Shown piece by piece: positions 7,737-43,606 of a stretch of 64,000 nt of DNA (position 1 is the stretch's first letter; each line of letters begins with the position of its first letter). Source of the stretch: Rickettsiales bacterium. Its GTDB lineage: Bacteria > Pseudomonadota > Alphaproteobacteria > Rickettsiales > JABIRX01. Location: the NCBI GenBank assembly GCA_034111325.1, contig JAWUXM010000002.1, forward strand, positions 13,228 to 77,227. The letters run 5' to 3'. The translations under genes and the position numbers were made by a program. The notes beneath the pieces are model-generated. The model did no database searches. It worked only from the letters and a program-made list of their open reading frames with translations, and was not told the origin of the DNA.

Positions 7737-8296
7737 TAGCGAGATTTTACGTGCGATATGACTTTTTTAACGCCTTTTACTTGGCTGGCGATCTTTGCCG
7801 CATTGCGTAATTCACGACGATCTTTAGCAGCACCAAGCAGGTAAACCGTGCCATCATTTACTTCAACGTTAAAATTAAAAGCACTGACATTTTTATTAAG
7901 CAACAATCTACTTTTTACTTGGGTTGCAAGCAAAGCATCCCTGACTTTGTGAGATTCTTCCTGTGTGACATTGATTTCATTAATAACTTCTTTGATTCCA
8001 AGTACCTGCCAAGTAAGTTTGATAGCTTTAATTGCTACTGCTTTTTCCTTTACCCGACCAGTTAACAAAACACGACCTTCATTAACATTGATTTTAATAT
8101 CAGAGAATAAATTGGTATATTGTTTATCAGCAAACTGACGTTTGATTTTTATCTCTGTTTTGGTATCTTTAAAACTGTCTTTGATAGATTTCTGCCGAGC
8201 TACCAGCACCCCGCCAACAACGACTGAGCCGATGACCGATTCTACACAAGAGGTTAAGGTAAATAATGTAAGAATAATTGCGAGACTCCTTTTCAT
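7736..8296 (-). CDS. BON-domain lipoprotein (OsmY/YraP-like)
   Basis: 186 aa. Signal peptide plus lipobox (LTSC), followed by two BON-like repeats (GRVLLTGRV..., DGTVYLLGAA...). Confidence 0.75.
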   Translation of the reverse strand: MKRSLAIILTLFTLTSCVESVIGSVVVGGVLVARQKSIKDSFKDTKTEIKIKRQFADKQYTNLFSDIKINVNEGRVLLTGRVKEKAVAIKAIKLTWQVLGIKEVINEINVTQEESHKVRDALLATQVKSRLLLNKNVSAFNFNVEVNDGTVYLLGAAKDRRELRNAAKIASQVKGVKKVISHVKSR

Positions 8297-8379
8297 GATT
8301 TTGTGCCTAAGAAATTAGCGAGAAGTCAAAAGTAGGATATATTAGTAAAATTGCTAGAAATTTTTACTATAGTAAAATA

Positions 8380-8433
8380 AAAATGGTGGGCTCAGGTGGA
8401 TTTGAACCACCGACCTCACGCTTATCAGGCGTG
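8380..8433. repeat. attL: 54-bp direct repeat, a truncated 3' copy of tRNA-Ile
   Basis: Base-for-base identical to 49980-50033 (aaaatggtgggctcaggtggatttgaaccaccgacctcacgcttatcaggcgtg). Identity breaks on both sides (8379 a vs 49979 t; 8434 a vs 50034 c). Confidence 0.93.
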
Positions 8434-8456
8434 ACACCATTCTTTGCAGACATGAC

Positions 8457-8512
8457 TCTTTCAGACTTTTTGATTGAAAAAATGTTACGCTTTACACTAA
8501 AAGTCTGAAAGA
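8457..8512. promoter_or_regulatory. Perfect 14-bp inverted repeat (tctttcagactttt / aaaagtctgaaaga, 28-nt spacer) just inside attL; candidate integrase arm-type sites
   Basis: Arms at 8457-8470 and 8499-8512 read directly from the sequence. The core AAAGTCTGAA recurs twice next to attR (49888-49926). Confidence 0.5.
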
Positions 8513-8839
8513 TAAGTTAATAATAAATAATAGGGCTATATGACTAAAAAAACAAACTTCAAATCAAAACGAGTAACTCCTAGCGTATCGTTTTATACTA
8601 ATGAAAGTAAGTTTGTAAAAAACTATTCCAGGGTATATTGCAGTGCTAATGCTTGGATTGGCTCCCCAAGCTGGAAAAGACGCATAAAGCTATTTATAGC
8701 GAAAATATTAAAATTTACTAAAATCTAACTCCCTCGAAATCGAGGGAATAAGGTAATCATGATAGAGCTTTCTTTAGTAATATTTATATTTTGCGTGTGG
8801 GCTAATAATAATTAATGATAAATCAATGTGAGGAGAATT

Positions 8840-9166
8840 ATGAGTGAATGGCGATCAATTGACAGTGCTCCAAAGGACGGCACAACCTTCTTAGCTCATA
8901 TAGGCGGAGCTGTGTATAAAGCTGGCTATACAACTGGTAGGACGGCTGTTTTTATGTGGTCTATGCACATTGATAAATCTGATGGAGGTGAAAATTTCGA
9001 TGAAGCTAATTATAAAGCTCGCGCCACAGCCTATCTCCACGGGTTTAAGGACAAACCAACGCACTGGATGCCGCTTCCTAAAATTGATAGATCAAAAGAA
9101 AAGGAAGAATTAAAGAAATATAAATCAGAGCTTTCAAAATTAAAGAAAAAATATAATCAAGAATAA
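8840..9166 (+). CDS. DUF551-like phage protein
   Basis: Track ORF starts at GTG 8828. The ATG at 8840 is preceded by GAGGAGA. Protein reads MSEWRSIDSAPKDGTTFLAH...PTHWMPLPK, the W..I..APKDG and THWMPLP signature I associate with DUF551. Confidence 0.7.
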   Translation: MSEWRSIDSAPKDGTTFLAHIGGAVYKAGYTTGRTAVFMWSMHIDKSDGGENFDEANYKARATAYLHGFKDKPTHWMPLPKIDRSKEKEELKKYKSELSKLKKKYNQE

Positions 9167-9169
9167 ATT

Positions 9170-9439
9170 ATGAGTAAAAAAAACAAACTACAATTATTTA
9201 TAATAGGGGTTTTATTATCACTATTGTTTTCGTCGCTGATGTGTTTGGCTGTTTATGTGTTGCTATGCTTCATCTTTTGGGAAATATTAACAATGAACCC
9301 TACTTCGATGAGGATCTTTTTTGTGGTTTATTCTATAACAGCAATAATAAGTGCCATTTCTGCCTTAGAAGAAGGGGAGTTAGAGAAAAATTCAGTTGTA
9401 AAGAATTACTTTACAACTGCCAAGGACGGTAAAAAATGA
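9170..9439 (+). CDS. Small membrane protein (2 predicted TM segments)
   Basis: 89-aa ORF with hydrophobic stretches LQLFIIGVLLSLLFSSLMCLAVYVLLCFIFW and IFFVVYSITAIISAISAL. Its stop overlaps the next start (ATGA). Confidence 0.55.
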   Translation: MSKKNKLQLFIIGVLLSLLFSSLMCLAVYVLLCFIFWEILTMNPTSMRIFFVVYSITAIISAISALEEGELEKNSVVKNYFTTAKDGKK

Positions 9440-9678
9440 AAAGTATGTTTTCTAAGAAAATCAGACACCAGCGTAAGCTACACAAATTAACCTTGAAACA
9501 GCTAGCTAGTGCTATAGGCACGAGCGTAAGCTATATTTGTCAACTGGAAAATAAAGTGAGTGCTAATCCCTCAGCTAAAATCGTTTATGCTATTGCGAAG
9601 TTCTTTGGCTGTTCTGTAGAATATTTTATGGAAGATAAATACAATATAGGAACTTATCCCGATAGTGATAAAGTCTAA
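9436..9678 (+). CDS. XRE-family helix-turn-helix transcriptional regulator
   Basis: 80 aa with LTLKQLASAIGTSVSYICQLENKVSANPSAKIVYAIAKFFGCSVEYF, a typical HTH_3 pattern. Confidence 0.8.
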   Translation: MKSMFSKKIRHQRKLHKLTLKQLASAIGTSVSYICQLENKVSANPSAKIVYAIAKFFGCSVEYFMEDKYNIGTYPDSDKV

Positions 9679-9711
9679 ATAATGTCTAGAAACGGTTTGA
9701 AATGTCTAAAA
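9670..9711 (+). promoter_or_regulatory. Three direct copies of A[AT]GTCTA[AG]A between the XRE gene and the next ORF; candidate operator
   Basis: aaagtctaaat (9670-9680), aatgtctagaa (9681-9691) and aatgtctaaaa (9701-9711), read directly from the sequence. Confidence 0.35.
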
Positions 9712-9767
9712 CCTGCAATGAACCGCAGAAAACGGGGAGCGATGAGGATTATTAATTAACTGAAGGA

Positions 9768-10286
9768 ATGATTATGGACGATTTACCTATAGAAAATATA
9801 AAGTGCTTAGAAGAAATACCAGAATCATTATGGAATAAAATTTATAATGTAATTGATGGTAAGAGCGAAGACTTTATCAGTTCTATCCAGATGGATAAAT
9901 ATGATTTAACTGAAATTGAAAGAATAACAGTTTATCTTGATAAAGATCATTATGACGAAGCCTTTAGTTTTGAGCATTTTTCAAGTGAAGAAGCGGGGTC
10001 TGAATTTAGAGATTTTATATATAGAGAAGATAATAGAGACTGGCAGCCAACAACAAGACAAGTCAATATATATTGCTTTAAACCAAAACGCTTGCTGAAT
10101 ATGACTGATGAACAGTTTAATTTTCAATTAAAGAAATTAAAACATAGCAAGTATTTACAGCAAAAACAAAAAGAAATGAAATTCGATTTAGCTATAGCTT
10201 ACCACGGAACAATTCAGCGTTGGCGGGACTTTGCAAAGAACAAATTTCTTTGTTTGGAATCCGAAACAAAATCTATTTTAGTATAA
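9768..10286 (+). CDS. Hypothetical protein, acidic N-terminal half, no recognisable family
   Basis: 172-aa ORF, co-oriented with and downstream of the XRE regulator. Confidence 0.55.
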   Translation: MIMDDLPIENIKCLEEIPESLWNKIYNVIDGKSEDFISSIQMDKYDLTEIERITVYLDKDHYDEAFSFEHFSSEEAGSEFRDFIYREDNRDWQPTTRQVNIYCFKPKRLLNMTDEQFNFQLKKLKHSKYLQQKQKEMKFDLAIAYHGTIQRWRDFAKNKFLCLESETKSILV

Positions 10287-10354
10287 AAACTAGGTATAGG
10301 ATAAGTACAAGGTCACTATACCATTATACCTATTATTAACGTATCTAGAATAAA

Positions 10355-10726
10355 ATGATGAACAGGATAGATGGCGAGATTGGAGAAATGTTAGAGATGC
10401 AAGAAGAGGCGATTACTAACGTGGTTAGGAGAGTGCCTTATTTTGCGTATTCAGCTCTTATGAGTCGGATAGACGAATTTCAAGGTACTGTCAATGCGGC
10501 ATATTTAGCTATATCAGAACTACCTGAGCACTCCAAATGTAATAATGTTACTTTTGAGGTGCCAAAAGTAAATGTTTTAAACGATGATGATTATAGGGAA
10601 TATAAAATATTAAAATACTATTTTACGAAATTACAAGATGCTCCTTTTTCTAATGAGAAAATGGAGAAATTAAGTGTGATGATAAAAGAAGAGGCAAAAG
10701 ATATAAAAGTTATTTGGAACACATAG
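10355..10726 (+). CDS. Hypothetical acidic protein, no recognisable family
   Basis: 123-aa ORF. Last gene of the plus-strand cassette and followed by hairpins. Confidence 0.55.
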   Translation: MMNRIDGEIGEMLEMQEEAITNVVRRVPYFAYSALMSRIDEFQGTVNAAYLAISELPEHSKCNNVTFEVPKVNVLNDDDYREYKILKYYFTKLQDAPFSNEKMEKLSVMIKEEAKDIKVIWNT

Positions 10727-10763
10727 TTGCTGTATAAAGTCATGCACAAGAAACCGTGCCTTC

Positions 10764-10814
10764 CTGCATATAGCTTTATGCAGTGCGAACTACCGAGGAA
10801 TACTCGACAGTTCG
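10764..10814. terminator. Two hairpins between convergent genes (putative bidirectional terminator region)
   Basis: ctgcat/atgcag stem at 10764-10783. cgaact..cgag/ctcg..agttcg stem at 10786-10814. No clear U-tract. Confidence 0.35.
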
Positions 10815-10829
10815 TAAACCTCCGAACCT

Positions 10830-11237
10830 CTAAGCCCGAACAATCCGCAAATTAAATTCATCGGGTAAGATTTTTTCTTGTAGCCAATCAAGGGTTTTCT
10901 TTGAATTGAAAACCGCCAGCTCATTATTCAGATTGCCCCAACCATTGCCGAAAGCTATACAGCCGTTTAGCTCGCTAGGTCTGTTAGCTACATGGATTTC
11001 AATATTATCTCGATCATCAACTTTAAGCAGTTTCCAATATTGATATTTGCCCGTTTTATCAGCAATACATCTGTATAAACCCTCTGGAATACATGACATG
11101 CCACGTTGATTATTAAACCAAGGGCACTCTATAGAGTATCCAAGACAGCCACCGTTTTCATCATGAACAGTGCCAACCGTGCCTTTATCAGCATTGATAA
11201 ACCTCTTTATTGTAAGAGTTTCAGTGTATTTGTGCAT
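10830..11237 (-). CDS. DUF5675-like protein with a YkuD-like His...Gly-Cys motif; endolysin candidate
   Basis: 135 aa with KGTVGTV...SCIPEGLY...IEIHVANRPSELNGCIAFG. Last gene of the late operon, next to small membrane proteins. Confidence 0.5.
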   Translation of the reverse strand: MHKYTETLTIKRFINADKGTVGTVHDENGGCLGYSIECPWFNNQRGMSCIPEGLYRCIADKTGKYQYWKLLKVDDRDNIEIHVANRPSELNGCIAFGNGWGNLNNELAVFNSKKTLDWLQEKILPDEFNLRIVRA

Positions 11238-11239
11238 CT

Positions 11240-11497
11240 TTAGAAGTTCTTTCGATCTGAGTTCTCCGCTTTATCAATATTAATTGCCAAAGCATTGATA
11301 AGTGGAGCTAACTTTCCTAAATTTCTGTCCTTCACAGAACTTGAAAGTGCTGAGGCAGCTAGCCCAATTCCTGCAATAGCCGCAGAAATAGGATTAGTTG
11401 CGGCTGTGACTGCGGCAGTAGTCATGCCGAGCTTATAAAAGATTTTGAATAGTTTTTTACCAATTCTAATTATTCTTTGTTTTGTGCTAAAGTTCAT
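11240..11497 (-). CDS. Small membrane protein (holin candidate)
   Basis: 85 aa with an Ala/Gly-rich hydrophobic core (MTTAAVTAATNPISAAIAGIGLAASALS). Immediately upstream of the endolysin candidate. Confidence 0.4.
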   Translation of the reverse strand: MNFSTKQRIIRIGKKLFKIFYKLGMTTAAVTAATNPISAAIAGIGLAASALSSSVKDRNLGKLAPLINALAINIDKAENSDRKNF

Positions 11498-11694
11498 GTT
11501 AACTTATAAATAAATATGTGCTAAAACTCATTATGAAATAGTAAAGTTTATTTGCAAATGAAATGCTGGAATTTATATATGCCCGAACTGCCGTTATAGC
11601 ACATAATGGTTTCAGAATGAACGAGTCTGAAAAATTGATATCAGAAATAAACGCTGTAATGTTGGCGAGGCTTTATCTGCACAGATTAAAAAAG

Positions 11695-12048
11695 CTAGCA
11701 CTCCTTCTTGATAGTTAAATAAAGATCAAGTTTTTCTAATATTGAGCGTGTTTCTTTACTTATTTGCTCTTTCAAGTCTCTTTTTAGTTCTTTCAGTGCT
11801 TCTGAAGATGCATATGTTTCTTTTACTCTAGACAACGCCCTTTGCTGCTCTTTCAGCTCACCTTTTAATTCTTTGATATCTGCTGCTTTCTCTGCGATTG
11901 CTACGCTTGTAAGGAGAGCAGAGGCTTGAATTGATTTATTGATAGTGACAATCGAATTTCTGAACGTCCAGCTTATGACTGCAAAGAAAATGCCACTAAA
12001 AATAGTAATACAAACAGTAATGAGATCAATAGAAAATAGGGGTTCCAC
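11695..12048 (-). CDS. N-terminal TM plus coiled-coil protein (i-spanin-like architecture)
   Basis: 117 aa. TM segment LITVCITIFSGIFFAVISWTF, followed by heptad-like KELKGELKEQQRAL...LKELKRDLKEQ. Confidence 0.4.
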   Translation of the reverse strand: MEPLFSIDLITVCITIFSGIFFAVISWTFRNSIVTINKSIQASALLTSVAIAEKAADIKELKGELKEQQRALSRVKETYASSEALKELKRDLKEQISKETRSILEKLDLYLTIKKEC

Positions 12049-12050
12049 AT

Positions 12051-12488
12051 TTATCCCTTAGGCTTGACTGGCTTTTCTTCTTCAACCAATTCACATTCTG
12101 GCTCTTCATCTTCTATCAGAAAGCCAACATATAGCATGTGTTGCGGTGTGAAAATTATATCTTCTATTTCTGCAATGCTTATTTGCTGAATATTCAATTC
12201 GACTTCCTGAGCTACAAGTTCGCTATGCTCTTTGAAATACGCAAGAGTATCTTCTTTGGCTATGTCAAATCTTCCATCTTTATTTTCCTTGCCATATTTT
12301 TTTATCAGTGATTGGCGCAGAGGCGAATAAATATCATATTCGTTTTTTAAAGCTTTGATAATTTTGCTGATTTTAAACGCTGTTTTTGCGCCCATATCTT
12401 TTGCAGATAGCGCACCGATAGGGCTTAAATCAGGTCTATCTACTGGCTCAAGTGCGTTGACAACATCGCTTAATTTTATTTTTATCAT
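12051..12488 (-). CDS. Hypothetical phage protein (tail-fibre accessory by position)
   Basis: 145-aa ORF, tightly packed in the late operon. Confidence 0.5.
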   Translation of the reverse strand: MIKIKLSDVVNALEPVDRPDLSPIGALSAKDMGAKTAFKISKIIKALKNEYDIYSPLRQSLIKKYGKENKDGRFDIAKEDTLAYFKEHSELVAQEVELNIQQISIAEIEDIIFTPQHMLYVGFLIEDEEPECELVEEEKPVKPKG

Positions 12489-12548
12489 GTTTTTTTCTTA
12501 GTTGATTAACTTTATTAATTTATAAATGATCTGTGCCGAATTGTAAAA

Positions 12549-13103
12549 TTATTCATTTACAAATGCCCCGCTCGTGAAAATCATAAATACTTCAGTACCT
12601 TTATTTAAAATCCTATACCCTTCGGCAGGATTTACCAAGCCATCAATTGCCGCCGCATCAATTTCCGCTTGAGAAAATGAGGAAACGGCTGAAGTAAAAT
12701 CAATGCCAACCGTCGCTGAATAATCAGCAACTAACTTTTTACCGTTTACTACTTCAACAATTATCAGGTTGCCACCAACCCCATTGACTGATCCAACTCC
12801 ATCAAAAGTTTTTAATATTTCATAATCTTGAATTGCTAAAGATTTATTTAATTGATTCAGAACTGGATTTGCAAAAAATAAGTCAAAAAGAGAATGTCCT
12901 TCGTCAACATAACAATTCAAATCTTGTAGAATTTGCGGTTTTTTATCTTTATAAGCTGCAATATTAGCATAAAACCGCAATTTTGTTTCCATTCTCTCAC
13001 CTCTCTTTGATAAAAAAGGTTCAGATACGCAATATGCGTTATTGTAATAAATTGGCGCAGAATCTGGCGATCTGCTATCTGTAATTTGTACTACTATTCC
13101 CAT
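12549..13103 (-). CDS. Hypothetical phage protein downstream of the tail fibre
   Basis: 184-aa ORF in the late operon. Confidence 0.5.
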   Translation of the reverse strand: MGIVVQITDSRSPDSAPIYYNNAYCVSEPFLSKRGERMETKLRFYANIAAYKDKKPQILQDLNCYVDEGHSLFDLFFANPVLNQLNKSLAIQDYEILKTFDGVGSVNGVGGNLIIVEVVNGKKLVADYSATVGIDFTSAVSSFSQAEIDAAAIDGLVNPAEGYRILNKGTEVFMIFTSGAFVNE

Positions 13104-13144
13104 TGTTTTGTTTGTTAAATTGTTATTAAATTGTTAAAATTATT

Positions 13145-15424
13145 TTATCCCTCTATTGCTTCCCAGTGTACATCTAATAACTGACCCCAAGATGCACCGA
13201 GGGAATCAACACGATAAACATTTATTTTAAAGCCGCTTACTGTGGTTTCTTTTATAGTTGATGCAAAAACATTTTGGTATGTCGTCCCTGGTTGAGTTAC
13301 AACCTCTGCCCTAACCCGTGGAACGGTTGAAAATGTATTGGGGAAATTAATGGTATAGACATTCACGCCAGAACTGCCGCCTCCAATATCTGCTTTGCCG
13401 TGTTGAAATGAGGAAATCGTAACACCAGTTGAACCTATTTTTAAGCTAGATAATGTCCCAACTGTTGTTATACTGCTACTTCCAGCCCAACCGCTTAATG
13501 CTGTATTTTGAACATTATTTAAACCTAGCTCATACTTCACTTCCAAAGGGGTTCGGCTTTCAAGCCCTTGGGATGTGAATCTAGCATACTCACCATTGTT
13601 GATATTAGATGTCGCAACTTTTACTGCATTATTAATTCCAATTCCAAATGTTAAAATTGCTTGTTTTGCGTTTAATTGAGTCTGAATTGCACTTGATACC
13701 CCTCTTACGTAAGCTAGTTCTGTAACATTTGGATAAGTTGCGAGAGATAAAGATTGTAAAACTCCTGATCCGTTTGCAGCTACTAATTCATTAGGGGTTA
13801 ATGAAAACACTGATTGTTTGCTATCTAATTGAGTCTGAATTGCACTTGTTACACCTTTTACATGCGCTATCTGTGCTAATGATGGATAAGTTGCGAGAGA
13901 TAAAGATTGTAAAACTCCTGCTCCGTTTGCAGCTACTAATTCATTGGCGGTTAATGAAAATACTGATTGTTTGCCATCTAATTGCGCCTGAATTGCACTT
14001 GTTACACCTTTTACGTGCGCTATCTGTGCTAATGATGGATAAGTCAAAACTGGCAAAGATTGCAATATTCCTGCACCATCCGTTGCTACTAACTCATCGG
14101 CTGTTAATCCGCTAATTTCAACATCACCTTCAAAAGTAGATACTCCTGTATCACTCAACTTTAGAATTTCTCCGATATTGTAATTTCCAAAACTCATATA
14201 AGTTGGCATATTGCCAGCCGTAGGAGTGCCATCTACTCCAAATTCTATGTACGCACCATTTTCGTAATCAGTGCCATCGTAACCAGCAGCAACAACTCGA
14301 CCCAAAACATTACCTGTCGTCACATCGTTTGGTGCGGCTAGAGTTCCCTTAGCTCTTCCTAAATATAAGTTTGCGCCTTCTGCCGAAACATTAGAATATT
14401 GCCTAGCTTGCATTCCAATTCTAGTGCCTTCTTGGTGTGATGAAATGCCTGCGCTTAAAGCAACACCACCAACAATCATGTTACTATTATTAAAATCAGC
14501 ACCTATAACTAAGCCAAAAGTTGCGGTGTTAAAGCATAATTTATCATTGTCTTGTGTGTGTGTGCCGCCAACGCCGATAATTGGCAAAGAATATTGGGTT
14601 AATTCACCTGTTCCCGTTCCACCTTTGGCAGCACCGATTATATCGCCTATCCAAGTCCCGTATATGTAGCCAAGATTTGATATTCCTGTTGTTGTGAAAT
14701 TCTTTGATCCTAAATCAACATTACTAACTGCGCCTGTGTAGGGGATGAAGCTATCTAAAGAAATCGTTGCTAAATTCTTGCTAGCGTCTGTAACTACAAT
14801 TTGTGAAGCTGTTAGTCCTGAAAGATTTAATCCTGCAAAGTCTGGGACTGAACTAAGTCCAAGACCTAGTGTAGTTCTTAATGTTGCTCCACTTTCAACA
14901 ATCCAGTTAGAACCATTACCAACGATCATGTTTCCGTCAGTGAAAGCTAGGTCAGCAAGATCATCTAGTTGTGCATCCCAGCCCTGAACTTTTGAACCAA
15001 CTTCATCTTCGGTAAGTATGAGGTCAGCCATTTTCTCCATCATCGCAGCAGAGACAACCTTCGGCGGAATTGTGTAGCTATATATAGGTTGGTCAGTGTT
15101 GATCTTATACCATATCCGTACTGAATATGAAGAGTGCGGCGTACCGCTCAACGTAACGTTTGCACCAGACAATCCAGTAACATACACTTTGCTGCTAAAT
15201 ATTTGGGTGGCTCCTGTGTAAACATAGCTCAACAGATCGTCAGAACGAAAAATAGAAGCCCTGCCTCCGACTATATTAGCTACTGCGAAGGGAGCGTTGA
15301 GCCCATTCTCATTCGCAGTTAGCGTGACAGAATTACTAATGATAACGCCAGCCGCAAAATCTTGGTAAGCCCATTTTTCAGAAAGCACTTCTTCATCGCC
15401 AAAGGGTGTTTTAAAATCACTCAT
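13145..15424 (-). CDS. Tail fibre protein with three 51-aa tandem repeats and a lectin-like C-terminal domain
   Basis: 759 aa, Gly/Ser/Thr-rich. Contains 3 x (LT.NELVA.NG.GVLQSLSLATYPSLAQIAHVKGVTSAIQTQLD.KQSVF). Located after the T7 gp17-like fibre gene. Confidence 0.8.
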   Translation of the reverse strand: MSDFKTPFGDEEVLSEKWAYQDFAAGVIISNSVTLTANENGLNAPFAVANIVGGRASIFRSDDLLSYVYTGATQIFSSKVYVTGLSGANVTLSGTPHSSYSVRIWYKINTDQPIYSYTIPPKVVSAAMMEKMADLILTEDEVGSKVQGWDAQLDDLADLAFTDGNMIVGNGSNWIVESGATLRTTLGLGLSSVPDFAGLNLSGLTASQIVVTDASKNLATISLDSFIPYTGAVSNVDLGSKNFTTTGISNLGYIYGTWIGDIIGAAKGGTGTGELTQYSLPIIGVGGTHTQDNDKLCFNTATFGLVIGADFNNSNMIVGGVALSAGISSHQEGTRIGMQARQYSNVSAEGANLYLGRAKGTLAAPNDVTTGNVLGRVVAAGYDGTDYENGAYIEFGVDGTPTAGNMPTYMSFGNYNIGEILKLSDTGVSTFEGDVEISGLTADELVATDGAGILQSLPVLTYPSLAQIAHVKGVTSAIQAQLDGKQSVFSLTANELVAANGAGVLQSLSLATYPSLAQIAHVKGVTSAIQTQLDSKQSVFSLTPNELVAANGSGVLQSLSLATYPNVTELAYVRGVSSAIQTQLNAKQAILTFGIGINNAVKVATSNINNGEYARFTSQGLESRTPLEVKYELGLNNVQNTALSGWAGSSSITTVGTLSSLKIGSTGVTISSFQHGKADIGGGSSGVNVYTINFPNTFSTVPRVRAEVVTQPGTTYQNVFASTIKETTVSGFKINVYRVDSLGASWGQLLDVHWEAIEG
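13648..14106. repeat. In-frame 3 x 153-bp tandem repeat inside the tail fibre gene
   Basis: Units start at about 13648, 13801 and 13954. Units 2 and 3 are nearly identical over their first ~90 nt on the + strand (atgaaaaYactgattgtttgc...gatggataag) and diverge afterwards. Confidence 0.85.
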
Positions 15425-17912: not shown

Positions 17913-20900
17913 CTATCTTTTTTTATAGAGAAAATAGTCAATTGGCTTAACATCTTCGCCACTGTTAGCATCGCCAAGAGCTTTTAACGCTATGTTCATC
18001 TGGCTTGATGGGTATTTAAAGATTATTCCGCCCGCACCATTGAGCGACCTAATAACTTGGTTAATGTCTATTTCTTCATCATTAAGTAAGTTTTCTGCGG
18101 TTTTTGCGGCTGTTTTTACTGCGCCAGATACGGCATCCAAGCCACGCAGTCCAGCAGGGCTTGCGCTAAAACCTTGAAGCCCAGAAGATATTTCACGCAA
18201 CACAGGCAAGCTTGCAGCCATATTTTGCAAAGTTAGTTTAATATTCCACCATAGGGGATCTTCCTCGCTATCCTCAAAATCTGGCGCTCTACCCAGTAAA
18301 AATTCACCCACAACCGCTTCAACCCAAAAAAGCATGAGGTAATCAGAAGCAAGATGAGCAATATCCGAAGGTTTCTTAAAGTCAGTCTTTTTAGTTTGTT
18401 CATAAGCTAAATTTAATTTGGTGTTAAAGTAAGAATAAAAAACAGTGAATAGGCGCACAAAAGGCGACAACCTAGTTGCTTCACTTATTGTACCACGCTC
18501 AAATCCTGATAAATCTTTCATATATCCCGATGATTGCGATTGAATCACTGAAACATCTGCAAACTCTACCGCTTTTTTATCATTCCCTGCAAAATCATTT
18601 AGCCCCTTTTCATAAGCTCCAAGCCACGTTGGCATATCCACCATCATTTGCATCTTTACAATTGGATAAAAGGCAGCCTTAGCAATTGAGCCTCTAATTT
18701 TACCTTTTTTCTGCATCAAGCGCAAAGCGTCGTGAATATCACGGTGGAAGGTAGTTGAGCGATCACGCATAATTTTTGACTTTTCCAATACCGCAGCAGC
18801 ATTTCTATTGATCTGCATAGGGTTTCCGCCACCAAGAAACTTAGCCCAGCCACTTAGCCCATATTTATAGCCAAGCTTTACAAAAGTTTGGCTATAGCCT
18901 GTGAGCTGAATTAGTGTTGTACTTGCTTTAAATCCCATTGCTGAAATAGAAACGCCAGCTCGCAAACTATCTAATCCACTTTCAAAGGCGGCACTAGCTA
19001 GCTTTCCGCCAATTGCGAGATCCTTTAGCCACATATCGAGCTGCTTAAAGGCGTTTATGCCCAAAGTATCAGTGATTGCCTTACGAGTTTTTGCCTTGTT
19101 GAGTATTTTAAAAGCATTTTCTAAAACATCGCCCATCGTTAGGTCTGTCACTACTGCGTTTAAATGATCGAAAAGCGGCGCAATATCTAAGCGCACAGGC
19201 TTATCTACATTGGCAACACGCTCTTTAGTATGCCCCCTGCGAGTTTGCGGGCGAGAAAATGTCTTAAATAAATTTGATAACGTTTCACTAAGGGGATTAT
19301 GCACTGTTGAGCTTAGCCTCTCATCATAACGTAATGGGTAATATCCTCCTTTAAGTGATATGGTTTTCCTGTCTTTTGTCGTTATACTAAAAGGCGAGCG
19401 TTGTACTTTTCTAGGCGCTATGCCAGTACGCCGCTTTTCCAGCTCTGCGATTTCCCCCCAAAAAGAATCTATATAATCCCAAGTTTTTTCAATAAAGAGC
19501 CAGTCATTAGTATCAAGATAGGATAAAATAGCTTCTACTTGCTGATCACCAAAGCCTCTGCCCTGCTTTAATTTAATACGGTTATCCTCATTACCCCAGT
19601 TTAACGCCGTAACAATCATGCTCTCTTTACTAATAGAATCTTTTAGCTCTGGAATATAAACTTTCTTGTGGCTGATTCCATTTTTGTAATGCTGCTTAAT
19701 GATATCATCCATAGCCTCACTTACTTCACGCAAGCGGCGAGTTTTCTTAACTTCGGCAGCGTCAATTGGCTTCATAACGTAATCATGCATCAAGCCTAAA
19801 TCCTTAAAGCCGTCCATTTGTCTAATGAATGTACGAGCTTTAATTGTGCTAAAAAAGAAGTTCTCAAATTGAAACTTTCTATTAGCCGCTCCCTCCCTTG
19901 TGTTTAAAACCTGCTTCTTCTTAGGTAGATTCTTGTTGATGTTTTCAGATAACTTATCTGCAATATCTGCCAATTCTTGTCTTTGCCCATCAACCAATAT
20001 GCTGCGCAGATGCCTGCCTTGCGCTGCAATATTTTCTACTGTGTCGTGCAACTCCACAAACTCATCAAAGCTCATATCTCTATAATGAGTCTTATCAGAT
20101 AATATTGGCGGGACAAAGTCAGCCCCATCTTGGTTTTCTTTATCAGCTTGCCACTGGCTCAAGGCTTCACGTGTAATCCTTAGCTCCTGCTGGGGTCTTG
20201 CAGAAAGCCTATAATTGCCTAACAACTCTACGATCTTTAAGCGATAATCCTCATCTATTTTAACTTTGCCTCTAGTTTGTGACTTCTGATATTTGGCGAA
20301 TTTTTGCAAAGCTTTTGACACGCCAACCCTTGCATCCGTCGCCTCTTTAAACAAATAATGGTTTAAAAGTTGTTCACGCTTATGTTTTGCAGCTTTCTCA
20401 TAGTCTTTTTGACCAAGTGCCTTACCTGCTGCACGTGCAGCCCTAACCTCTGCTAAATAATATTGCGAAGGTTTTATTGCTTCATCGACTTTTTTGCGCC
20501 CAACAACTTCACGGGCTTTTTGTTTGTAAGACTCCTTAGTTTCTTTGAGCCCACCAATTTTGCGCCCAATAACATCAAGTTCAAAGGCGATTTGGCTTGC
20601 ACGCTGTACATCCTGCATGGTTTCCAATGCTTCACGCTCAAGGCTTCCATCTCGGAGCATATCGCCATGGCGAGCAAACATCTCTTCATCAACAGATTTC
20701 TTAATTTCCGCCTTTTTATTTGGCATGTTAGCCATAGCAAAAAGCATCTCATCCGCAGAGGTGAAGCCAAACTCCTCAGCAACTATTTCAGGAGCAACGC
20801 CTTTGCCGCCCATAATTCCACTAGGTAGATATTTAACAATCTCAGGGTCAAACCTGCTTTTAATGGAGTTCCTATCCATTTTATACGGCTTTACTTCGGG

Positions 20901-23900
20901 AGGAGTCTCTCTGTCTAAAAATGCACCAGTTTTAAGAAAGTGCACAGCACGATAAATAGGGGATTTGTTAAACCTCTCTTCTGCTTCTTTGGTCAATTGC
21001 TCAACTTGCCCTTTCCACCACTTTTTATCCCTACGCTCTAATTGACGCAAAGTCTTGCGCATAAGTTTGTCTTTTGAGTTGTTGAGGGCTTTTTGATTGC
21101 GGGCAATATAATCTTTCTGCTCCGCCTTTGTTAAAACTTCCAAAATATCAAGATTAGGTTTAAAGAGTGGGTCAGAGCTTAGAGCTTCAATCTGCTCGTC
21201 AGTTGCCAGCATGCGATCAAAAACCTCCTTCATCTCTGGCGAGACTTTAACATTAAGATTAGATATATCCTTGTAAATCCTTGCTAGCCAAGCTTTAAAG
21301 CGTTGAAACACACTGCGCAGCTCGATTGATGGTGCTTCACCTTTGTAAAGATAAGCTTCAAAGCCACGAGCAAACTTCTCATGCTGCTCTCTGGTAAAGT
21401 TGCCATCTTTTGAGCCGAGCCACTCAAGAGTTTTCTGCCAATCTGCTCTAATCTGTTCTGGCGCATCATCCGTAGCAACGATTTGCTTTTGCACTTCCAA
21501 AAAGAAATGTCCACCTTCATGTAACAAAGTTGATAAATCCCTACCTTCAAACAAGCTAATGACAGTTTCCCCATCAGGTGCATTAAATTGAATTGATCCT
21601 TTTTTGTTGATTTGACCTTGATATGAAAATGCCACACCATCATCAAAAACAACAATAGCATCCTTATCTAAGACATCTTGACTTCCCTCAACTGTAAACC
21701 CCTTCCTTTGTGCGTCGCCGAAAGTTCGTCTAACCTCTGTGTTTCTAGCCTCGATCTCGCCAGCAAGGTTTCTATATTTTGTTTGAGCCTTTTCTATTAG
21801 ATCTAAAGGGTCGATATTAACCTTGTCTACTAAAGTCAGCTTCCTTTTCATAATATCCTGATACTCGCCCGTCCCGACCTTCTCTCTCAATTGCTCGTTA
21901 AGAAAGCTAATCTCTTTTTCTATTTCAGATATTTCCTCCCTCATTTCCGAGTAAAATTTCTTAGGGCTTCCGCCAGAAGCAAAGCCCTCTTGACCCTGTA
22001 TAGCATGTTGCACTTCGTGCATTAAATAGCCTATAGCCTGCTCTTTGTCCTTAACGACGATGGTAATTTCGGGGTCACGACCAAATTTTTCTGCATCGCT
22101 AGGAGTTCCTTGTCTAAAAAAGGCGTGGGGCTCACTTATTAATTTATCAATCGTAATTTCAACTTGAACCCCCGCCAGTTGTGGGTAGGCAGCTTCCAGC
22201 TTGTCGTGTTCCAGAAGGTCAAACAACATACCAATTCCATATTTAGCATTGCCTTGATTGCGGAGTCCTTTTATTTTTGCCTCATTATCGCTTATTTCAA
22301 AACGCCAGTGTTTATCTACGCCTTTAAACCAACCCGTTTTTTTACGCACTTCCTCTGCATCCTCTCCTGCCTCAAGCTTCTGTGAGGCTGTTTTTAACGT
22401 GAACAAGTCAGCGGTCTTTGCACTAACTCCTGCGAATTGGTAAAGAATATTAGGATCGTTCGGGTTGAAAGTTCCTTTGTTTTCTACAGATTTGATTTGG
22501 GTTGGAAACCAAGCAATATAAACATCACCCTCACCTTCTTGGAAGTCTTTTACTTTAATACCATCAAAACCAAGAGTATCACGAACAGCTTGGGGAACTG
22601 TCGTTTTATCACCAACAACATTTGATAGTTCGGAAATTTGGTCTACTGCTGTGTCGCTTCCCTCAAGGATTGATTGAGCTACTTCTTTTATAGCTTGTGC
22701 TTTTGATAAAGAATATGTATCAACAAAATTTGATAAAAACGAATCTTTATAATCAGTAATCTCATCGCTAAATTTCTCAATCTCAATATCAACTATTTTA
22801 TTAAGAATGGATGATGTTTGCTTAATATTGAATGGCTTTTGTTTGCTGTCTAGTGGTTTTTGCATTGATAGATAAGCCTCTACCATAGAACCACCCTCGT
22901 TTTGATAGCCTTTAGCTATATCTTTATTGTTGGTTAAATAAAATCCATACCCTTCCGCCGTTGCGTTGCTTCCAACTTTCTTAATATCAAATGTATCAAA
23001 CTTAGTATTGCTGCCGTGATAAACAACCAAAGGCTCACCCTTCTCATCAACTACCTTTGAGTCACCAAACCATTTTTTGAATGATTCAGCTCTTATGTGA
23101 TCGTCATGTGATTTTGGCTGGCTAAATGTCTGATTTTCCACCTCTGCAATCGCAGCTTTAATTTCAGCATTGCTTGCCTCATAAATATCAACACCTAGCT
23201 TGTCTAACTCTTCGATCAGTTGGTTGTCTGAATCTTGCTGCGTTTTCTCATCTACACTGAGAGCTTGTGATATGTCAGTGCCGCTTTGTTCTTCTCGGAT
23301 AAGCTCTAATAAATAATCCCTATCGACATAAAGCCCGTCCTCGGAAGCTGTAGGCTCTACATTAGGAAAAGAGTCTCTAAACTCCGAAAGGGCAATATTA
23401 TCAATTTCATTTAAATTGTTTCCACCGTCCTCAAAAAGCCCGCCTCGCTGCTTCTTGAAGAGTCCTTTTGTGTTTTTATCATTAATGCCGATACTCTCAA
23501 GCTCTCCCGCTAGAGAGCTTCCACTAATAACACCGCCTCTGGATTGAATGAGTTTTAGCAGTGGTTTTTGAGCTTTCTTACTTGGCTTATTCATAGCCTT
23601 TCTTATACGATCAAGCTCTAAGTCAAGATTATCAACCTTAGAATATTTTTGCGCTATACCTCTTTTTTCTTCCTGCGCTGCTTGGATTTTCAAACTATCA
23701 AATGCTTTTTGTAAAATTTGTTTACCATCTTCACCTGATCTTTGTGATTGGCTCTCATAGAAAGCTCTAAATGCTGTAGAATAAAGTCTCGCACTCTCTG
23801 GGGTTAAGCCTGCTTTAGTAATTTGATCTTCAATATTTCTTTGGATCTCTGCAGCTTTATTTAGCTCCTCTGCTACTTGCCCTGACTCTTCATATTCACG

Positions 23901-25553
23901 CAATATGTTGTCATTATACAACTCTGACAATTCTTCATCCGTTAGCGTCTCAGGGTTGAGTTTTAACAACCCTTGTAGTTCAGACATTTGTTCATTTTGC
24001 GCCATTGCTGAGATGACTTTATTAGCAGGCAAAACAAGGTTTCCCCCTAGATCTAGAGCCTCTTCTATCTGTTCCTTAGCCTCTGGTACTTTGGCGTAAA
24101 AATCGTTCAGACTTTCATCAGATTGGAAGAATTCTTTAAACTTGCTGGCATCAACATAAAGCTTTTGATCTCCTAAAGTCTCGCTAGTAACCTCTTCAAA
24201 TAATTTAGGATTGCGCTTGAAAACTTTGCTGTTTTTAACCTTGTCAACCAGCTCTGATAAGCTGTCTTGATCTTGCTTAAATTTCTGGTTAGCGATATTG
24301 CTTTTCACTGCACGGTCAATCACCACCCCAGTTGTGGCAAATCCTGCGCCACCTTGCGCACCTCTTACCCCCGCTTCCGCCGCTCTATCAAACGCCTCTG
24401 CTACATATTCAATGAAAGTTGGCACTTCGCCATCTCCTGCTTGGAAAGCTGTAAAGTCTTGCTCTGAAATCTTGTTAGCAACAAACTTAGCGGATTCGCC
24501 CATTACTGAATTGATTAACTCTTGCGCCGCCTCTGTTGTTCCCTCACTGATAATAGCACTTCCTATCTTTTGGAATGCGTCTTTTGCCTTTTGGTTGCGT
24601 AATAATTTTTTGACGGACTCCGTGCTAAATTGAGCAAAGAGCTTGTCACCGCCAGGAAAAGCCTTAGCTATCGCTTTTGCGCCTGTTCGCTCAAGTAAGC
24701 CGTTTGCTATTCCTACCGTTAATGATGCGCCTCTTGCTATGCTAGGGTCTAGCTTTTTTCCCTGTTCGTCCGCATAATCTGAAAACTCAACCATCGCAGC
24801 GCCCAGCTCTTGCTTCATAAATTGCAAGGTTAAGGCGGGTGCAAAACTTCTAGCAAAGCCTGTGGTTGCTCCTGTTGCCGTACCAATCCCTGGTACTGCT
24901 GATCCTACACCTGCTCCAACTACTGCGCCGCCCAATGACAAGCCTGCCGCATCTTTTATCGCTTCAAACATAGGCACGGACATTTCCACGGTTGCGCTAG
25001 GCACTCCCTCCACGAAGCCTATATCGTAATCTTTTCTCTCAGTCTGCTTAATAAGATTAAGGCTATTTTGCTCTACGGGAGATAAGTCACTGCCAAAAAA
25101 CATTTTTGTGCCAAGATCAGAAATATCACGATTTTGCACAGAAGCTTGTGCAGATTGCTTTAAATCACGTGTCCAACGCTCAAAATAAGATAAATTCTCA
25201 ATATCATCATGAATCGCAGAAGCTTTGGCGGGGTCTTTTAACTGCTTGCTGGTGAGCGGAAATTGATTAATTAGATTGGCAAAGTCTAAAGATTCGAACT
25301 CTGTACGCTGCTTTATTTCATTCTCCCTTGCCCTAATAGTTTGAAAGGGCAAATTAGTATCTTTGGCGAGTGAGTATTGCCTTGCGGAGCTTTCAGGATT
25401 GTTTTTAATGGCATAATTCATGCTCGCACGAATATCACCATCAGCCACAACGCCATCTATAGCATCGCTATAATCAACATTATCATCTTTCTTCGGAGGC
25501 TTTTTATCACCGACCACTTGGTTAATGGCATCTGAATAATCAATATCAGGCAT
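17913..25553 (-). CDS. Giant internal virion protein (T7 gp16 position) with polyvalent-protein domains: ART-like H-Y-E region and two HExxH zincin-like regions
   Basis: Uninterrupted 2546-aa ORF. PLVVYHGS (H846), GFYLT (Y872) and VEAYL (E892). HEVQH at aa 1179-1183 (nt 22005-22019). HEGGH at aa 1345-1349. Gly-rich hydrophobic segment at aa 203-245. Hydrophobic C-terminal third. Confidence 0.75.
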   Translation of the reverse strand: MPDIDYSDAINQVVGDKKPPKKDDNVDYSDAIDGVVADGDIRASMNYAIKNNPESSARQYSLAKDTNLPFQTIRARENEIKQRTEFESLDFANLINQFPLTSKQLKDPAKASAIHDDIENLSYFERWTRDLKQSAQASVQNRDISDLGTKMFFGSDLSPVEQNSLNLIKQTERKDYDIGFVEGVPSATVEMSVPMFEAIKDAAGLSLGGAVVGAGVGSAVPGIGTATGATTGFARSFAPALTLQFMKQELGAAMVEFSDYADEQGKKLDPSIARGASLTVGIANGLLERTGAKAIAKAFPGGDKLFAQFSTESVKKLLRNQKAKDAFQKIGSAIISEGTTEAAQELINSVMGESAKFVANKISEQDFTAFQAGDGEVPTFIEYVAEAFDRAAEAGVRGAQGGAGFATTGVVIDRAVKSNIANQKFKQDQDSLSELVDKVKNSKVFKRNPKLFEEVTSETLGDQKLYVDASKFKEFFQSDESLNDFYAKVPEAKEQIEEALDLGGNLVLPANKVISAMAQNEQMSELQGLLKLNPETLTDEELSELYNDNILREYEESGQVAEELNKAAEIQRNIEDQITKAGLTPESARLYSTAFRAFYESQSQRSGEDGKQILQKAFDSLKIQAAQEEKRGIAQKYSKVDNLDLELDRIRKAMNKPSKKAQKPLLKLIQSRGGVISGSSLAGELESIGINDKNTKGLFKKQRGGLFEDGGNNLNEIDNIALSEFRDSFPNVEPTASEDGLYVDRDYLLELIREEQSGTDISQALSVDEKTQQDSDNQLIEELDKLGVDIYEASNAEIKAAIAEVENQTFSQPKSHDDHIRAESFKKWFGDSKVVDEKGEPLVVYHGSNTKFDTFDIKKVGSNATAEGYGFYLTNNKDIAKGYQNEGGSMVEAYLSMQKPLDSKQKPFNIKQTSSILNKIVDIEIEKFSDEITDYKDSFLSNFVDTYSLSKAQAIKEVAQSILEGSDTAVDQISELSNVVGDKTTVPQAVRDTLGFDGIKVKDFQEGEGDVYIAWFPTQIKSVENKGTFNPNDPNILYQFAGVSAKTADLFTLKTASQKLEAGEDAEEVRKKTGWFKGVDKHWRFEISDNEAKIKGLRNQGNAKYGIGMLFDLLEHDKLEAAYPQLAGVQVEITIDKLISEPHAFFRQGTPSDAEKFGRDPEITIVVKDKEQAIGYLMHEVQHAIQGQEGFASGGSPKKFYSEMREEISEIEKEISFLNEQLREKVGTGEYQDIMKRKLTLVDKVNIDPLDLIEKAQTKYRNLAGEIEARNTEVRRTFGDAQRKGFTVEGSQDVLDKDAIVVFDDGVAFSYQGQINKKGSIQFNAPDGETVISLFEGRDLSTLLHEGGHFFLEVQKQIVATDDAPEQIRADWQKTLEWLGSKDGNFTREQHEKFARGFEAYLYKGEAPSIELRSVFQRFKAWLARIYKDISNLNVKVSPEMKEVFDRMLATDEQIEALSSDPLFKPNLDILEVLTKAEQKDYIARNQKALNNSKDKLMRKTLRQLERRDKKWWKGQVEQLTKEAEERFNKSPIYRAVHFLKTGAFLDRETPPEVKPYKMDRNSIKSRFDPEIVKYLPSGIMGGKGVAPEIVAEEFGFTSADEMLFAMANMPNKKAEIKKSVDEEMFARHGDMLRDGSLEREALETMQDVQRASQIAFELDVIGRKIGGLKETKESYKQKAREVVGRKKVDEAIKPSQYYLAEVRAARAAGKALGQKDYEKAAKHKREQLLNHYLFKEATDARVGVSKALQKFAKYQKSQTRGKVKIDEDYRLKIVELLGNYRLSARPQQELRITREALSQWQADKENQDGADFVPPILSDKTHYRDMSFDEFVELHDTVENIAAQGRHLRSILVDGQRQELADIADKLSENINKNLPKKKQVLNTREGAANRKFQFENFFFSTIKARTFIRQMDGFKDLGLMHDYVMKPIDAAEVKKTRRLREVSEAMDDIIKQHYKNGISHKKVYIPELKDSISKESMIVTALNWGNEDNRIKLKQGRGFGDQQVEAILSYLDTNDWLFIEKTWDYIDSFWGEIAELEKRRTGIAPRKVQRSPFSITTKDRKTISLKGGYYPLRYDERLSSTVHNPLSETLSNLFKTFSRPQTRRGHTKERVANVDKPVRLDIAPLFDHLNAVVTDLTMGDVLENAFKILNKAKTRKAITDTLGINAFKQLDMWLKDLAIGGKLASAAFESGLDSLRAGVSISAMGFKASTTLIQLTGYSQTFVKLGYKYGLSGWAKFLGGGNPMQINRNAAAVLEKSKIMRDRSTTFHRDIHDALRLMQKKGKIRGSIAKAAFYPIVKMQMMVDMPTWLGAYEKGLNDFAGNDKKAVEFADVSVIQSQSSGYMKDLSGFERGTISEATRLSPFVRLFTVFYSYFNTKLNLAYEQTKKTDFKKPSDIAHLASDYLMLFWVEAVVGEFLLGRAPDFEDSEEDPLWWNIKLTLQNMAASLPVLREISSGLQGFSASPAGLRGLDAVSGAVKTAAKTAENLLNDEEIDINQVIRSLNGAGGIIFKYPSSQMNIALKALGDANSGEDVKPIDYFLYKKR

Positions 25554-41805: not shown

Positions 41806-42015
41806 TTATATTGGCGCAACTTTCATATCCTCAAAGCCGTAATATGAGTTTGCATCAACCGCTCCTTTGGTGTACCTGAAAAGCGTCGACATATCCTCCT
41901 CATGGGGGATCTTACCATTCTTATAGAGCGAGATTCTCGATTCGGGAATGCCAGTGTCTTCACTGATTTTCCTGCCCTTTATTTTGTTTATGTGCATCCA
42001 GCGGTATAATTGCAT
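41806..42015 (-). CDS. Cro-like HTH regulator
   Basis: 69 aa with GRKISEDTGIPESRISLYKNGK. First gene of the leftward operon and divergent from the CI-like gene. Confidence 0.6.
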   Translation of the reverse strand: MQLYRWMHINKIKGRKISEDTGIPESRISLYKNGKIPHEEDMSTLFRYTKGAVDANSYYGFEDMKVAPI

Positions 42016-42160: not shown

Positions 42161-42601
42161 ATGCTTAAAAAGAAGAGGATTCTATCCAACAAGGTGAAGG
42201 ATATTAGGGCGGCTAAGGGCTGGACTCAATCCAAGCTATCCGAAGAGTCGGGCATAGATGAAACCGAAATCAGCCAAATCGAAAACTGTAAAAGATCAAT
42301 CAGCAGCGAAAGAATGCACATATTAACCAATGCGCTAGGCTGCACAATATCTGAACTGCTAGGAGAGAGTGACTATCGAGCGCAAGCAAAAGAAGAGATA
42401 GAGGAGGAGTTGTTGCAAAAAATAATGACCATTGTCAAGCAAAGAGCGGCAGATAAGGGATATAGCATCACGAGAGTGCAATTTACAAAAGCAGTAATGC
42501 TGATTTATGATGATATAATTAGGCAAAAAGACAAATATAAAACAATCGACTCTAGCATTGTTGACAATGTAGTAAGTCTAAAAAATTACAGAGAGAGATA
42601 A
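42161..42601 (+). CDS. CI-like XRE-family repressor
   Basis: 146 aa with N-terminal HTH (IRAAKGWTQSKLSEESGIDETEISQIENCKRSIS). Divergent from the cro-like gene. Confidence 0.65.
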   Translation: MLKKKRILSNKVKDIRAAKGWTQSKLSEESGIDETEISQIENCKRSISSERMHILTNALGCTISELLGESDYRAQAKEEIEEELLQKIMTIVKQRAADKGYSITRVQFTKAVMLIYDDIIRQKDKYKTIDSSIVDNVVSLKNYRER

Positions 42602-42626
42602 TTTTTTTAATTAATTAAGGTAATTT

Positions 42627-43265: not shown

Positions 43266-43292
43266 TTGCACCCTTAAAGCGACCAACCTTCA

Positions 43293-43322
43293 AAGCCACC
43301 AGAACTCTGGTGGCTTTTTTTG
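43293..43322 (+). terminator. Rho-independent terminator after the OMP moron
   Basis: aagccaccag-aact-ctggtggctt followed by tttttt. Confidence 0.75.
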
Positions 43323-43577: not shown

Positions 43578-43606
43578 TGACAAATTAATAAAGAACAACT
43601 AACATT
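43578..43606 (+). promoter_or_regulatory. Putative rightward early promoter (TTGACA-17 nt-TAACAT) embedded in ATAAATTAATTGA repeats
   Basis: ttgaca at 43578-43583 and taacat at 43601-43606. taaattaattga occurs twice upstream (around 43549 and 43570). Confidence 0.45.

Follow-up and report, generated by a model that had tools for sequence, protein, structure and literature searches.

A low-GC accessory cassette at the attL end of a 41.6-kb alphaproteobacterial prophage, probably mosaic cargo lying beyond the integrase gene

In phage lambda, the early-left operon is followed by the phage attachment site (attP) and then by the b region, which carries the ea genes. We analysed a cassette of five open reading frames (ORF1 to ORF5, 8840-10726) at the left attachment site (attL) of a prophage in a 64,000-nucleotide stretch of a Rickettsiales bacterium genome (contig JAWUXM010000002.1; this whole stretch is called the window, and all positions are counted from its first base). 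An earlier interpretation made from the letters alone, which we call the sequence-only reading, had proposed this cassette as a lysogeny-expressed exclusion, defence or toxin-antitoxin (TA) module. Our favoured reading, to which we assign a joint probability of roughly 55%, is that the prophage is an intact, excision-competent 41.6-kb temperate phage sitting in a tRNA-Ile gene of a low-GC alphaproteobacterium, and that the cassette is its accessory arm beyond the integrase gene int ('b-region-like') and holds ordinary mosaic cargo. Two described protein families are directly relevant to its content. DUF551 is a portable domain found in an Ea22 variant of Shiga toxin (Stx) phages (PMC10834534) and in YfdS of the cryptic prophage CPS-53 (PMC4776307), and PDC-S05, which PADLOC lists as a candidate defence system, carries a Virulence_RhuM domain, with phage resistance conferred by one of its representatives according to a preprint (10.1101/2024.09.26.614923).

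A 54-nt direct repeat without mismatches flanks the prophage, with copies at 8380-8433 and 49980-50033 (100% identity, spacing 41,600 nt). The copy at the right end (attR) forms the 3' part of an intact tRNA-Ile(GAT) on the minus strand (49984-50059), and a tRNA-like remnant overlaps attL at 8387-8459, scoring 27.3 bits against a gathering score of 29 in an Rfam scan that returned no other RNA family in 8200-11300. An independently assembled contig, Ga0455689_306865 of JGI metagenome 3300041951 (41,741 bp), was 100% identical to the window over the segments compared, which were two fetched segments: L001, aligned by blastn, and the last 189 bases of L085, read by eye. In this contig, a single core of 54 nt connects window positions 48368-50033 (int and attR) with 8380-13286 (attL and the cassette). 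Its final base is window position 47714 and its first base is 47574, the latter extrapolated from the L001 offset with contig positions 1-794 assumed to be colinear. The contig is circular because its ends overlap by 141 nt, leaving a 41,600-bp unit that matches the spacing of the att sites, and it represents the excised or replicating circular phage.

On the circular genome, the cassette lies directly downstream of int and attP and on the same strand as the plus-strand arm. That arm runs from a CI-like XRE gene (42161) through an outer-membrane beta-barrel gene (42627), a strong terminator (43292-43317) and AT-rich repeats (43544-43583) to a set of small genes, a Tad2-like gene (44571), PDDEXK and AAA_24 recombination genes, a phrog_1376 gene that is conserved in phages but has no assigned function (47185-48324) and finally int. 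Integration opens the circle at attP and thereby shifts the cassette to the opposite end of the prophage, where it faces the late and lysis operon. The sequence-only reading had taken this orientation as a sign of expression during lysogeny; given the int-attP-cassette order of the circular contig, it is a by-product of integration and the idea of lysogenic expression is weakened. More generally, the circular phage map has to be considered before the orientation of genes at a prophage end can count as evidence for expression in the lysogen. The cassette, its flanks and int comprise the following features:

8380-8433, no strand: attL core, a 54-nt copy identical to the attR core at 49980-50033
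8540-8728, plus strand: ORF0, 62 aa, isoelectric point (pI) 10.7, between attL and ORF1
8840-9166, plus strand: ORF1, 108 aa, DUF551-like, with a Lys/Glu-rich C-terminal tail
9170-9439, plus strand: ORF2, 89 aa, a hydrophobic leader (codons 1-41) followed by a RhuM-derived 48-codon tail
9293-9451, plus strand: 5' relic of a rhuM-family gene, corresponding to residues 32-84 of the ~335 in RhuM
9436-9678, plus strand: ORF3, XRE/Cro-C1-type helix-turn-helix (HTH) regulator, 80 aa
9768-10286, plus strand: ORF4, 172 aa, soluble, pI 5.2, net charge -7
10355-10726, plus strand: ORF5, 123 aa (or 122), soluble, pI 4.8, net charge -6
10830-11237, minus strand: convergent DUF5675 lysin gene (Pfam E 2e-23)
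48773-49900, plus strand: tyrosine integrase, int (Phage_integrase E 8e-13)

Five plus-strand ORFs lie between attL and the convergent DUF5675 gene, whose product is a C82-like peptidase and candidate lysin (bioRxiv 10.64898/2026.04.11.717860), and all five were found at the coordinates given earlier. Their description as tightly packed holds for ORF1, ORF2 and the XRE gene but not for ORF4 and ORF5, which are preceded by gaps of 89 and 68 nt. GC content is 30-39% per cassette ORF and differs from ORF to ORF, and in 1-kb windows it is 33-35% across the cassette versus 40-46% for the structural genes. We scored coding potential as codon-usage log-odds trained on the long prophage genes, which themselves score 0.34 +/- 0.10. 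In-frame scores were gene-like (0.29-0.45) for ORF1, the 3' part of ORF2, ORF4 and ORF5, while the XRE gene scored lower (0.13), yet best in its own frame; a recognisable ribosome-binding site was missing in three of the cassette ORFs. No paralogues of the cassette proteins were found within the window, and the cluster of each protein is limited to the two contigs bearing this phage, the 172-aa protein for example being found on an NCBI contig of 154,571 bp and on Ga0455689_306865. The cassette is thus a low-GC, mostly uncharacterised accessory region at the attL end, and it joins the known class of phage accessory or moron regions that are rich in orphan genes.

The mosaic character of this region is most apparent in ORF2, which is a chimera: its last 48 codons come from the 5' part of a rhuM-family gene, now decayed and cut off at the XRE start. 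A RhuM protein of 335 aa aligns through its residues 32-79 with residues 42-89 of ORF2 (48% identity over 50 aa, pairwise BLASTP E 3e-9), the conserved EGEL..SV.K.Y.TTA.DGK motif is retained in the tail, and the N-terminal HTH-like segment of RhuM is also represented. Among PADLOC models, 14 of PDC-S05 match the final 25-35 residues (55-89; best E 1.9e-5), and tblastn with the tail returned matches mostly annotated as RhuM or RhuM/Fic/DOC. The homology continues through the ORF2 stop and ends within the first codons of the XRE gene, a point that marks the recombination breakpoint. The stretch at 9293-9451 is the sole RhuM-like one in the window (E 4.7e-7), and the remainder of the gene was sought elsewhere in the window and not found. 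In a reference RhuM, the Virulence_RhuM domain spans residues 65-311; with homology stopping at about residue 84, less than 10% of that domain is kept in the window, and the ORF2 tail therefore reads as a relic and not as a system. The Pfam profile itself (PF13310, 252 profile positions) matched neither ORF2 nor a 48-aa version of it at E values up to 10.

That 48-aa version comes from one of two public gene calls, which starts ORF2 at 9293. The protein had been credited with two transmembrane segments, and two hydrophobic stretches are indeed present (residues 5-44 and 45-67), but the first 41 codons score as non-coding (-0.135) and the second stretch corresponds to the RhuM helix-turn-helix region, degenerated to hydrophobic residues. 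Against 5.8 billion protein clusters, ORF2 matched only itself. Its stop codon overlaps the XRE start by 4 nt (ATGA), as had been reported and as we read in the sequence, and the XRE gene is probably translationally coupled to it. A small membrane protein beside an XRE regulator can accordingly be a recombination scar, here a truncated rhuM, and not a toxin. Judged from these alignments, the cassette is a mosaic assembled by recombination, in which a gene of a defence family persists in truncated form. As a separate observation, the RhuM-like tail gave a weak tblastn match to an unannotated stretch of a Candidatus Paracaedibacter acanthamoebae plasmid (NZ_CP008942.1, 14780-14848; 61% identity over 23 aa, E 8). 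This species is a low-GC alphaproteobacterial symbiont of amoebae, and the match may either point to the lineage of the host or be due to chance.

ORF1 is DUF551-like, as had been noted. Against DUF551 (PF04448), the protein scores 20.4 bits, below the gathering score of 22, but it matches phrog_924 (E 2.7e-5) and has an N-terminal MSEW...P.DGT and a C-terminal THWMPLPKI motif in common with a 58-aa DUF551 protein that scores 37.5 bits. The gene has a strong Shine-Dalgarno sequence (GAGGAG) and a coding score of 0.34, and its only match in IMG/VR was a single short partial one. Upstream, ORF0 is called in both public annotations and has a marginal coding score (0.05); it matched no family in Pfam, PHROGs, PADLOC or NCBIfam, and its status as a gene is doubtful.

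ORF4 and ORF5 had been noted as acidic proteins with no recognisable motif. Neither matched a Pfam or PHROGs family and the pI values agree, but the acidity is only mild and ORF4 is bipartite, with a net charge of -16 over residues 1-95 and +9 over residues 96-172, so that its C-terminal half is basic. For this gene (coding score 0.29), a start at 9774 is more likely by the spacing of the ribosome-binding site. A HMMER search of 1.84 billion representatives yielded one credible relative of ORF4 (P0003), 31% identical over the full length (E 2.3e-11); a second candidate (P0004) was rejected as spurious, being a low-complexity repeat protein. Searches of NCBIfam, the Protein Data Bank (PDB) and phage and plasmid collections, including by tblastn, found no match for ORF4; among 5.8 billion protein clusters it matched itself only, a profile search with the ORF4 alignment found nothing, and the same alignment recovered no relatives from GTDB genomes or IMG/VR. 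ORF5 has the highest coding score in the cassette (0.45) and, by these comparisons, appears to be an orphan: it too matched only itself among the 5.8 billion clusters, nothing was found in the PDB or in plasmids, and tblastn against phages gave one chance-level match (E 0.4).

The relative of ORF4 is encoded on a phage-like contig (L002), in a plus-strand block of small genes; YopX, HNH and terminase genes belong to a second block, divergent from the first, and its locus contains no XRE or membrane partner. The protein following it shares the N-terminal LEEIPE..W motif of ORF4 and has a DUF551-like C-terminal end (WQSIETAP). A common motif, L-E-[ED]-I-P-x-x-(L)-[WH], is therefore present in ORF4 (window 9768-9840), in its relative and in the next protein on that contig (L002 8001-8991), which suggests that it may be a mobile N-terminal unit associated with early proteins of the DUF551 type.

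The regulator encoded between ORF2 and ORF4 was correctly recognised as an 80-aa XRE HTH protein. It matches HTH_3 (PF01381) with E 2e-13 over residues 9-64 (50.6 bits versus a cut-off of 23), indicating an intact domain, and phrog_8 with E 2.4e-15; the nearest solved chains are 9sf2_A (E 2e-10) and 7t5u_A (E 2e-9), followed by SinR. Matches to the PADLOC models HTH_VI, capH and RmrA are generic and confined to their HTH parts, and a search of IMG/VR gave one short partial match. A repeated operator-like motif had been described next to it, and AATGTCTARAA does occur twice in the 89 nt that separate the XRE gene from ORF4. Its core, TRTCTARAA, has 7 copies in the 64 kb of the window, of which three (9683, 9703 and 10342) fall inside the two cassette spacers, 157 nt in total. 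These sites are the best candidate operator of the adjacent XRE protein and suggest a local control of ORF4 and ORF5. Repeats and hairpins in and around the cassette are as follows:

8457-8512, plus strand: perfect 14-bp inverted repeat with a 28-nt loop, 24 nt past the att core; none of 200 dinucleotide shuffles had one as long
8728-8749, minus strand: hairpin after ORF0, -15.7 kcal/mol, z = -4.75, with a U-rich tail on the minus strand only
9393-9419, minus strand: perfect 11-bp inverted repeat within the 3' end of ORF2, -14 kcal/mol, z = -4.5, 1/200 shuffles, with a U-run
9681-9711, plus strand: two direct copies of AATGTCTARAA, 20 nt apart (starts 9681 and 9701), in the XRE-ORF4 spacer
10342-10350, plus strand: the core TRTCTARAA for the third time (TATCTAGAA), 5 nt before the start codon of ORF5
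10729-10816, no strand: two adjacent stem-loops between ORF5 and the DUF5675 gene, -34.3 kcal/mol, z = -4.3, 0/200 shuffles as good

The cassette ends in hairpins, as had been noted: the two stem-loops at 10729-10816 mark the 3' boundary of both convergent transcription units, although they have a canonical U-tract on neither strand and are not in the list of the terminator scan. The repeat at 8457-8512 becomes the first structure downstream of int in the circular phage and may be a terminator or processing site of the int transcript; its position after int recalls the tI/sib retroregulation site of lambda, and its 111-nt context folds unremarkably (z = -1.0). On the minus strand, the structure at 9393-9419 looks like a possible intrinsic terminator for antisense or read-through transcription. 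A promoter-like sequence on the same strand (TAGACA-18-CATTAT, 9708-9679) occupies the same bases as the repeats at 9681-9711, and an antisense RNA starting there could cover the XRE gene and be ended by the minus-strand hairpins. No sigma-70 promoter was found directly upstream of ORF4, either by scan or by eye.

Under the favoured reading of an accessory arm beyond int, the cassette ORFs would be transcribed at infection or induction as a distal extension of the int arm, or alternatively or additionally from a weak promoter that the cassette itself has ahead of ORF1. A terminator scan found no canonical plus-strand terminator between int and ORF1. The XRE protein would bind the TRTCTARAA sites before ORF4 and ORF5 and set the level of both proteins, which would act early in the phage cycle as dispensable cytoplasmic accessory proteins on functions of the host or of competitors. 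The minus-strand hairpins, together with the stem-loops at 10729-10816, would halt late-operon read-through or antisense RNA before it reached attP and int.

Several points weigh against this reading. Read-through from int across attP is inferred only from orientation and the lack of canonical terminators, and the hairpins at 8457-8512 and 8728-8749, which lie between int and ORF1, could stop plus-strand transcription even without a U-tract. The promoter-like site upstream of ORF1 (8783-8812) is weak, with 9/12 matches, and promoter-like sites in the region are barely commoner than in shuffled sequence (18 vs 12.2 +/- 3.4). The TRTCTARAA pattern was derived post hoc from the cassette sites, making its enrichment only suggestive, and its copies are direct repeats, while XRE dimers usually bind inverted repeats. 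To the accessory roles proposed for ORF4 and ORF5, structure prediction, which the sequence-only reading had recommended together with a fold search, added little: single-sequence AlphaFold2 models had predicted local distance difference test (pLDDT) scores of 42.7 for ORF4 and 48.3 for ORF5, too poor to use, and their Foldseek comparison to BFVD, with no match at E < 0.1, is uninformative given that quality. The low-confidence ORF5 model (pLDDT 48) would have a beta-alpha-beta-alpha-beta-beta pattern. Finally, the likeness to the lambda b region is one of position and orientation only.

Of the competing explanations, an anti-defence operon fares best, although we consider it unlikely. Here, ORF4 and ORF5 would inhibit host immunity as small acidic proteins produced very early, and the XRE protein would act like a repressor of the anti-CRISPR-associated (Aca) type, switching the operon off once the first burst is over. 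Like many anti-defence proteins, both are small, soluble, acidic and lineage-restricted; they share an operon with a small HTH gene and a short motif repeated before both genes, the same plus-strand arm already contains a Tad2-like anti-Thoeris gene, and the ORF4 homologue occurs within a small-gene block of another phage. Their acidity is nevertheless far from that of DNA mimics, a role that we considered for both proteins and found unsupported at net charges of only -7 and -6. The HTH gene is also on the wrong side, being upstream where typical acr-aca operons have it downstream, and neither protein resembles known anti-defence families in PHROGs, Pfam or the PDB.

A little less probable is that the cassette is decaying cargo, in which recombination has left relics and the ORFs drift without being selected for any function. 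The truncated rhuM, whose frame runs across a stop codon, is what such decay would leave behind, as are the poor coding score of the ORF2 leader, the marginal score of ORF0, the three ORFs lacking a recognisable ribosome-binding site, an ORF5 with no relatives and protein clusters restricted to the two contigs carrying this phage. However, ORF1, ORF4 and ORF5 have coding scores (0.29-0.45) like those of bona fide phage genes (0.34 +/- 0.10), an unrelated phage encodes a homologue of ORF4 that is 31% identical from end to end, the XRE gene retains an intact domain, and the phage is active with a compact genome.

We place lower still the original proposal of a lysogeny-expressed exclusion, abortive infection (Abi) or TA module, in which the XRE protein would serve as antitoxin or repressor to an effector or toxin supplied by ORF2 or the ORF4/ORF5 pair. 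Positions next to att sites commonly host morons, the hydrophobic ORF2 is translationally coupled to the XRE gene, and the rhuM-family (PDC-S05) trace indicates that the locus has held defence-type cargo. This trace is only a relic, though, retaining less than 10% of its domain, and no ORF matched a TA toxin, Abi, exclusion or PADLOC system family in Pfam, PHROGs, PADLOC-DB 2.0 or NCBIfam. The PADLOC comparison that had been suggested as a check gave no complete system: its matches were the RhuM tail, the generic HTH part of the XRE protein (capH and RmrA models) and one marginal match of ORF4 to a SAVED-Lon-TM model (E 0.003). Antitoxin models, too, were matched by the XRE protein only generically, in their HTH parts. 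By these profile searches, the cassette does not qualify as a working TA, Abi or PADLOC defence system of any known family. The candidate effectors fit poorly as well, as the ORF2 leader is statistically non-coding and its second hydrophobic segment a degenerate RhuM HTH, ORF4 and ORF5, preceded by gaps of 89 and 68 nt, are not spaced as type II TA pairs typically are, and the ORF4 homologue occurs with neither an XRE nor a membrane partner; the argument from orientation vanishes in the circular genome.

The least probable proposal is that ORF4 and ORF5 form an undescribed two-protein phage module under XRE control, used for anti-defence or inter-phage competition (exclusion) and with ORF4 founding a new family that has the N-terminal LEEIPE..W motif in common with DUF551-linked early proteins, and at present nothing distinguishes the two from the very large pool of phage orphan genes. 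If active, they would represent new families, found in a phage-host pair of which hardly any relatives have been characterised.

The isolation of this pair is evident across the datasets searched. No close relative of the phage was found in IMG/VR, INPHARED, GTDB representatives or a JGI metagenome scan, and no relatives were found of the DUF5675 lysin in IMG/VR and JGI metagenomes or of the integrase in JGI metagenomes. Relatives of the integrase are 22-31% identical and mostly come from phages of Alphaproteobacteria. The host is a deep-branching, low-GC (~40%) alphaproteobacterium, with a NuoC at most 62-68% identical to those of diverse Alphaproteobacteria in GTDB.

Elsewhere in the prophage, the plus-strand arm encodes a recognisable counter-defence gene for a Tad2-like (Thoeris anti-defence 2) protein (44571-44843, Pfam E 2.8e-22). 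The CI-like XRE protein (146 aa) is followed by an outer-membrane beta-barrel protein (212 aa, OMP_b-brl E 1.2e-12) on the plus strand at 42161-43317, with the terminator after the latter (43292-43317) consisting of an 11-bp stem and a T-run; this beta-barrel gene behind a CI-like repressor is the phage's likeliest lysogeny-expressed moron. A weak Cro-like HTH gene (41806-42015) diverges from the CI-like XRE gene. At the head of the plus-strand early operon, three overlapping 20-nt AT-rich repeats (ATTGATAAATTAATTGATTA; 43544-43583) lie beside promoter-like sites and may be the operator region of an early-left promoter. On the minus strand, three tandem 153-nt (51-codon) repeats, 69-82% identical, occur at 13647-14105 within a 759-aa ORF (13145-15424) that is probably a tail fibre or host-recognition gene, and the structural region contains a single 2,546-aa ORF (17913-25553), unusually large for a 41.6-kb phage.

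Set beside known systems, the cassette resembles several in part. As in type II TA loci with an XRE antitoxin (HigA, HipB, MqsA), a small XRE gene shares 4 nt with the small ORF next to it, but no toxin family was detected in ORF1, ORF2, ORF4 or ORF5, the overlapping partner is a gene relic, and the XRE protein scores far under the cut-offs of antitoxin models (for example, 23.2 bits vs 71.65). With acr-aca operons, it has in common small acidic orphans beside a small HTH regulator, short repeated motifs at 5' ends and a Tad2-like gene in the arm; it differs in its reversed gene order, in repeats that are direct and not inverted, and in having no match to an anti-CRISPR (Acr) or Aca family in Pfam or PHROGs. 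Compared to the RhuM family, only ~53 of ~335 residues are represented, in a fragment that is joined to a hydrophobic leader and that the XRE gene cuts short, and compared to DUF551 (PF04448) proteins such as YfdS, ORF1 has a ~45-residue insertion and an extra Lys/Glu-rich tail. The DUF551-type domain also links the cassette to the lambdoid early-left gene Ea22, in its variant from Stx phages (PMC10834534).

The lambda b region is the remaining comparison, from which the cassette differs in its alphaproteobacterial host and in carrying an XRE regulator of its own; no homology to the lambda ea47, ea31, ea59 or Ea22 proteins was found, although no search aimed at it was made. Like the b region, it occupies the interval from attP to the distal end of the late genes, is co-oriented with int and the early-left recombination arm, and is carried by integration to the far end of the prophage. 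By analogy with the lambda ea genes, its contents would be small mosaic genes of unassigned function that are probably dispensable to the phage.

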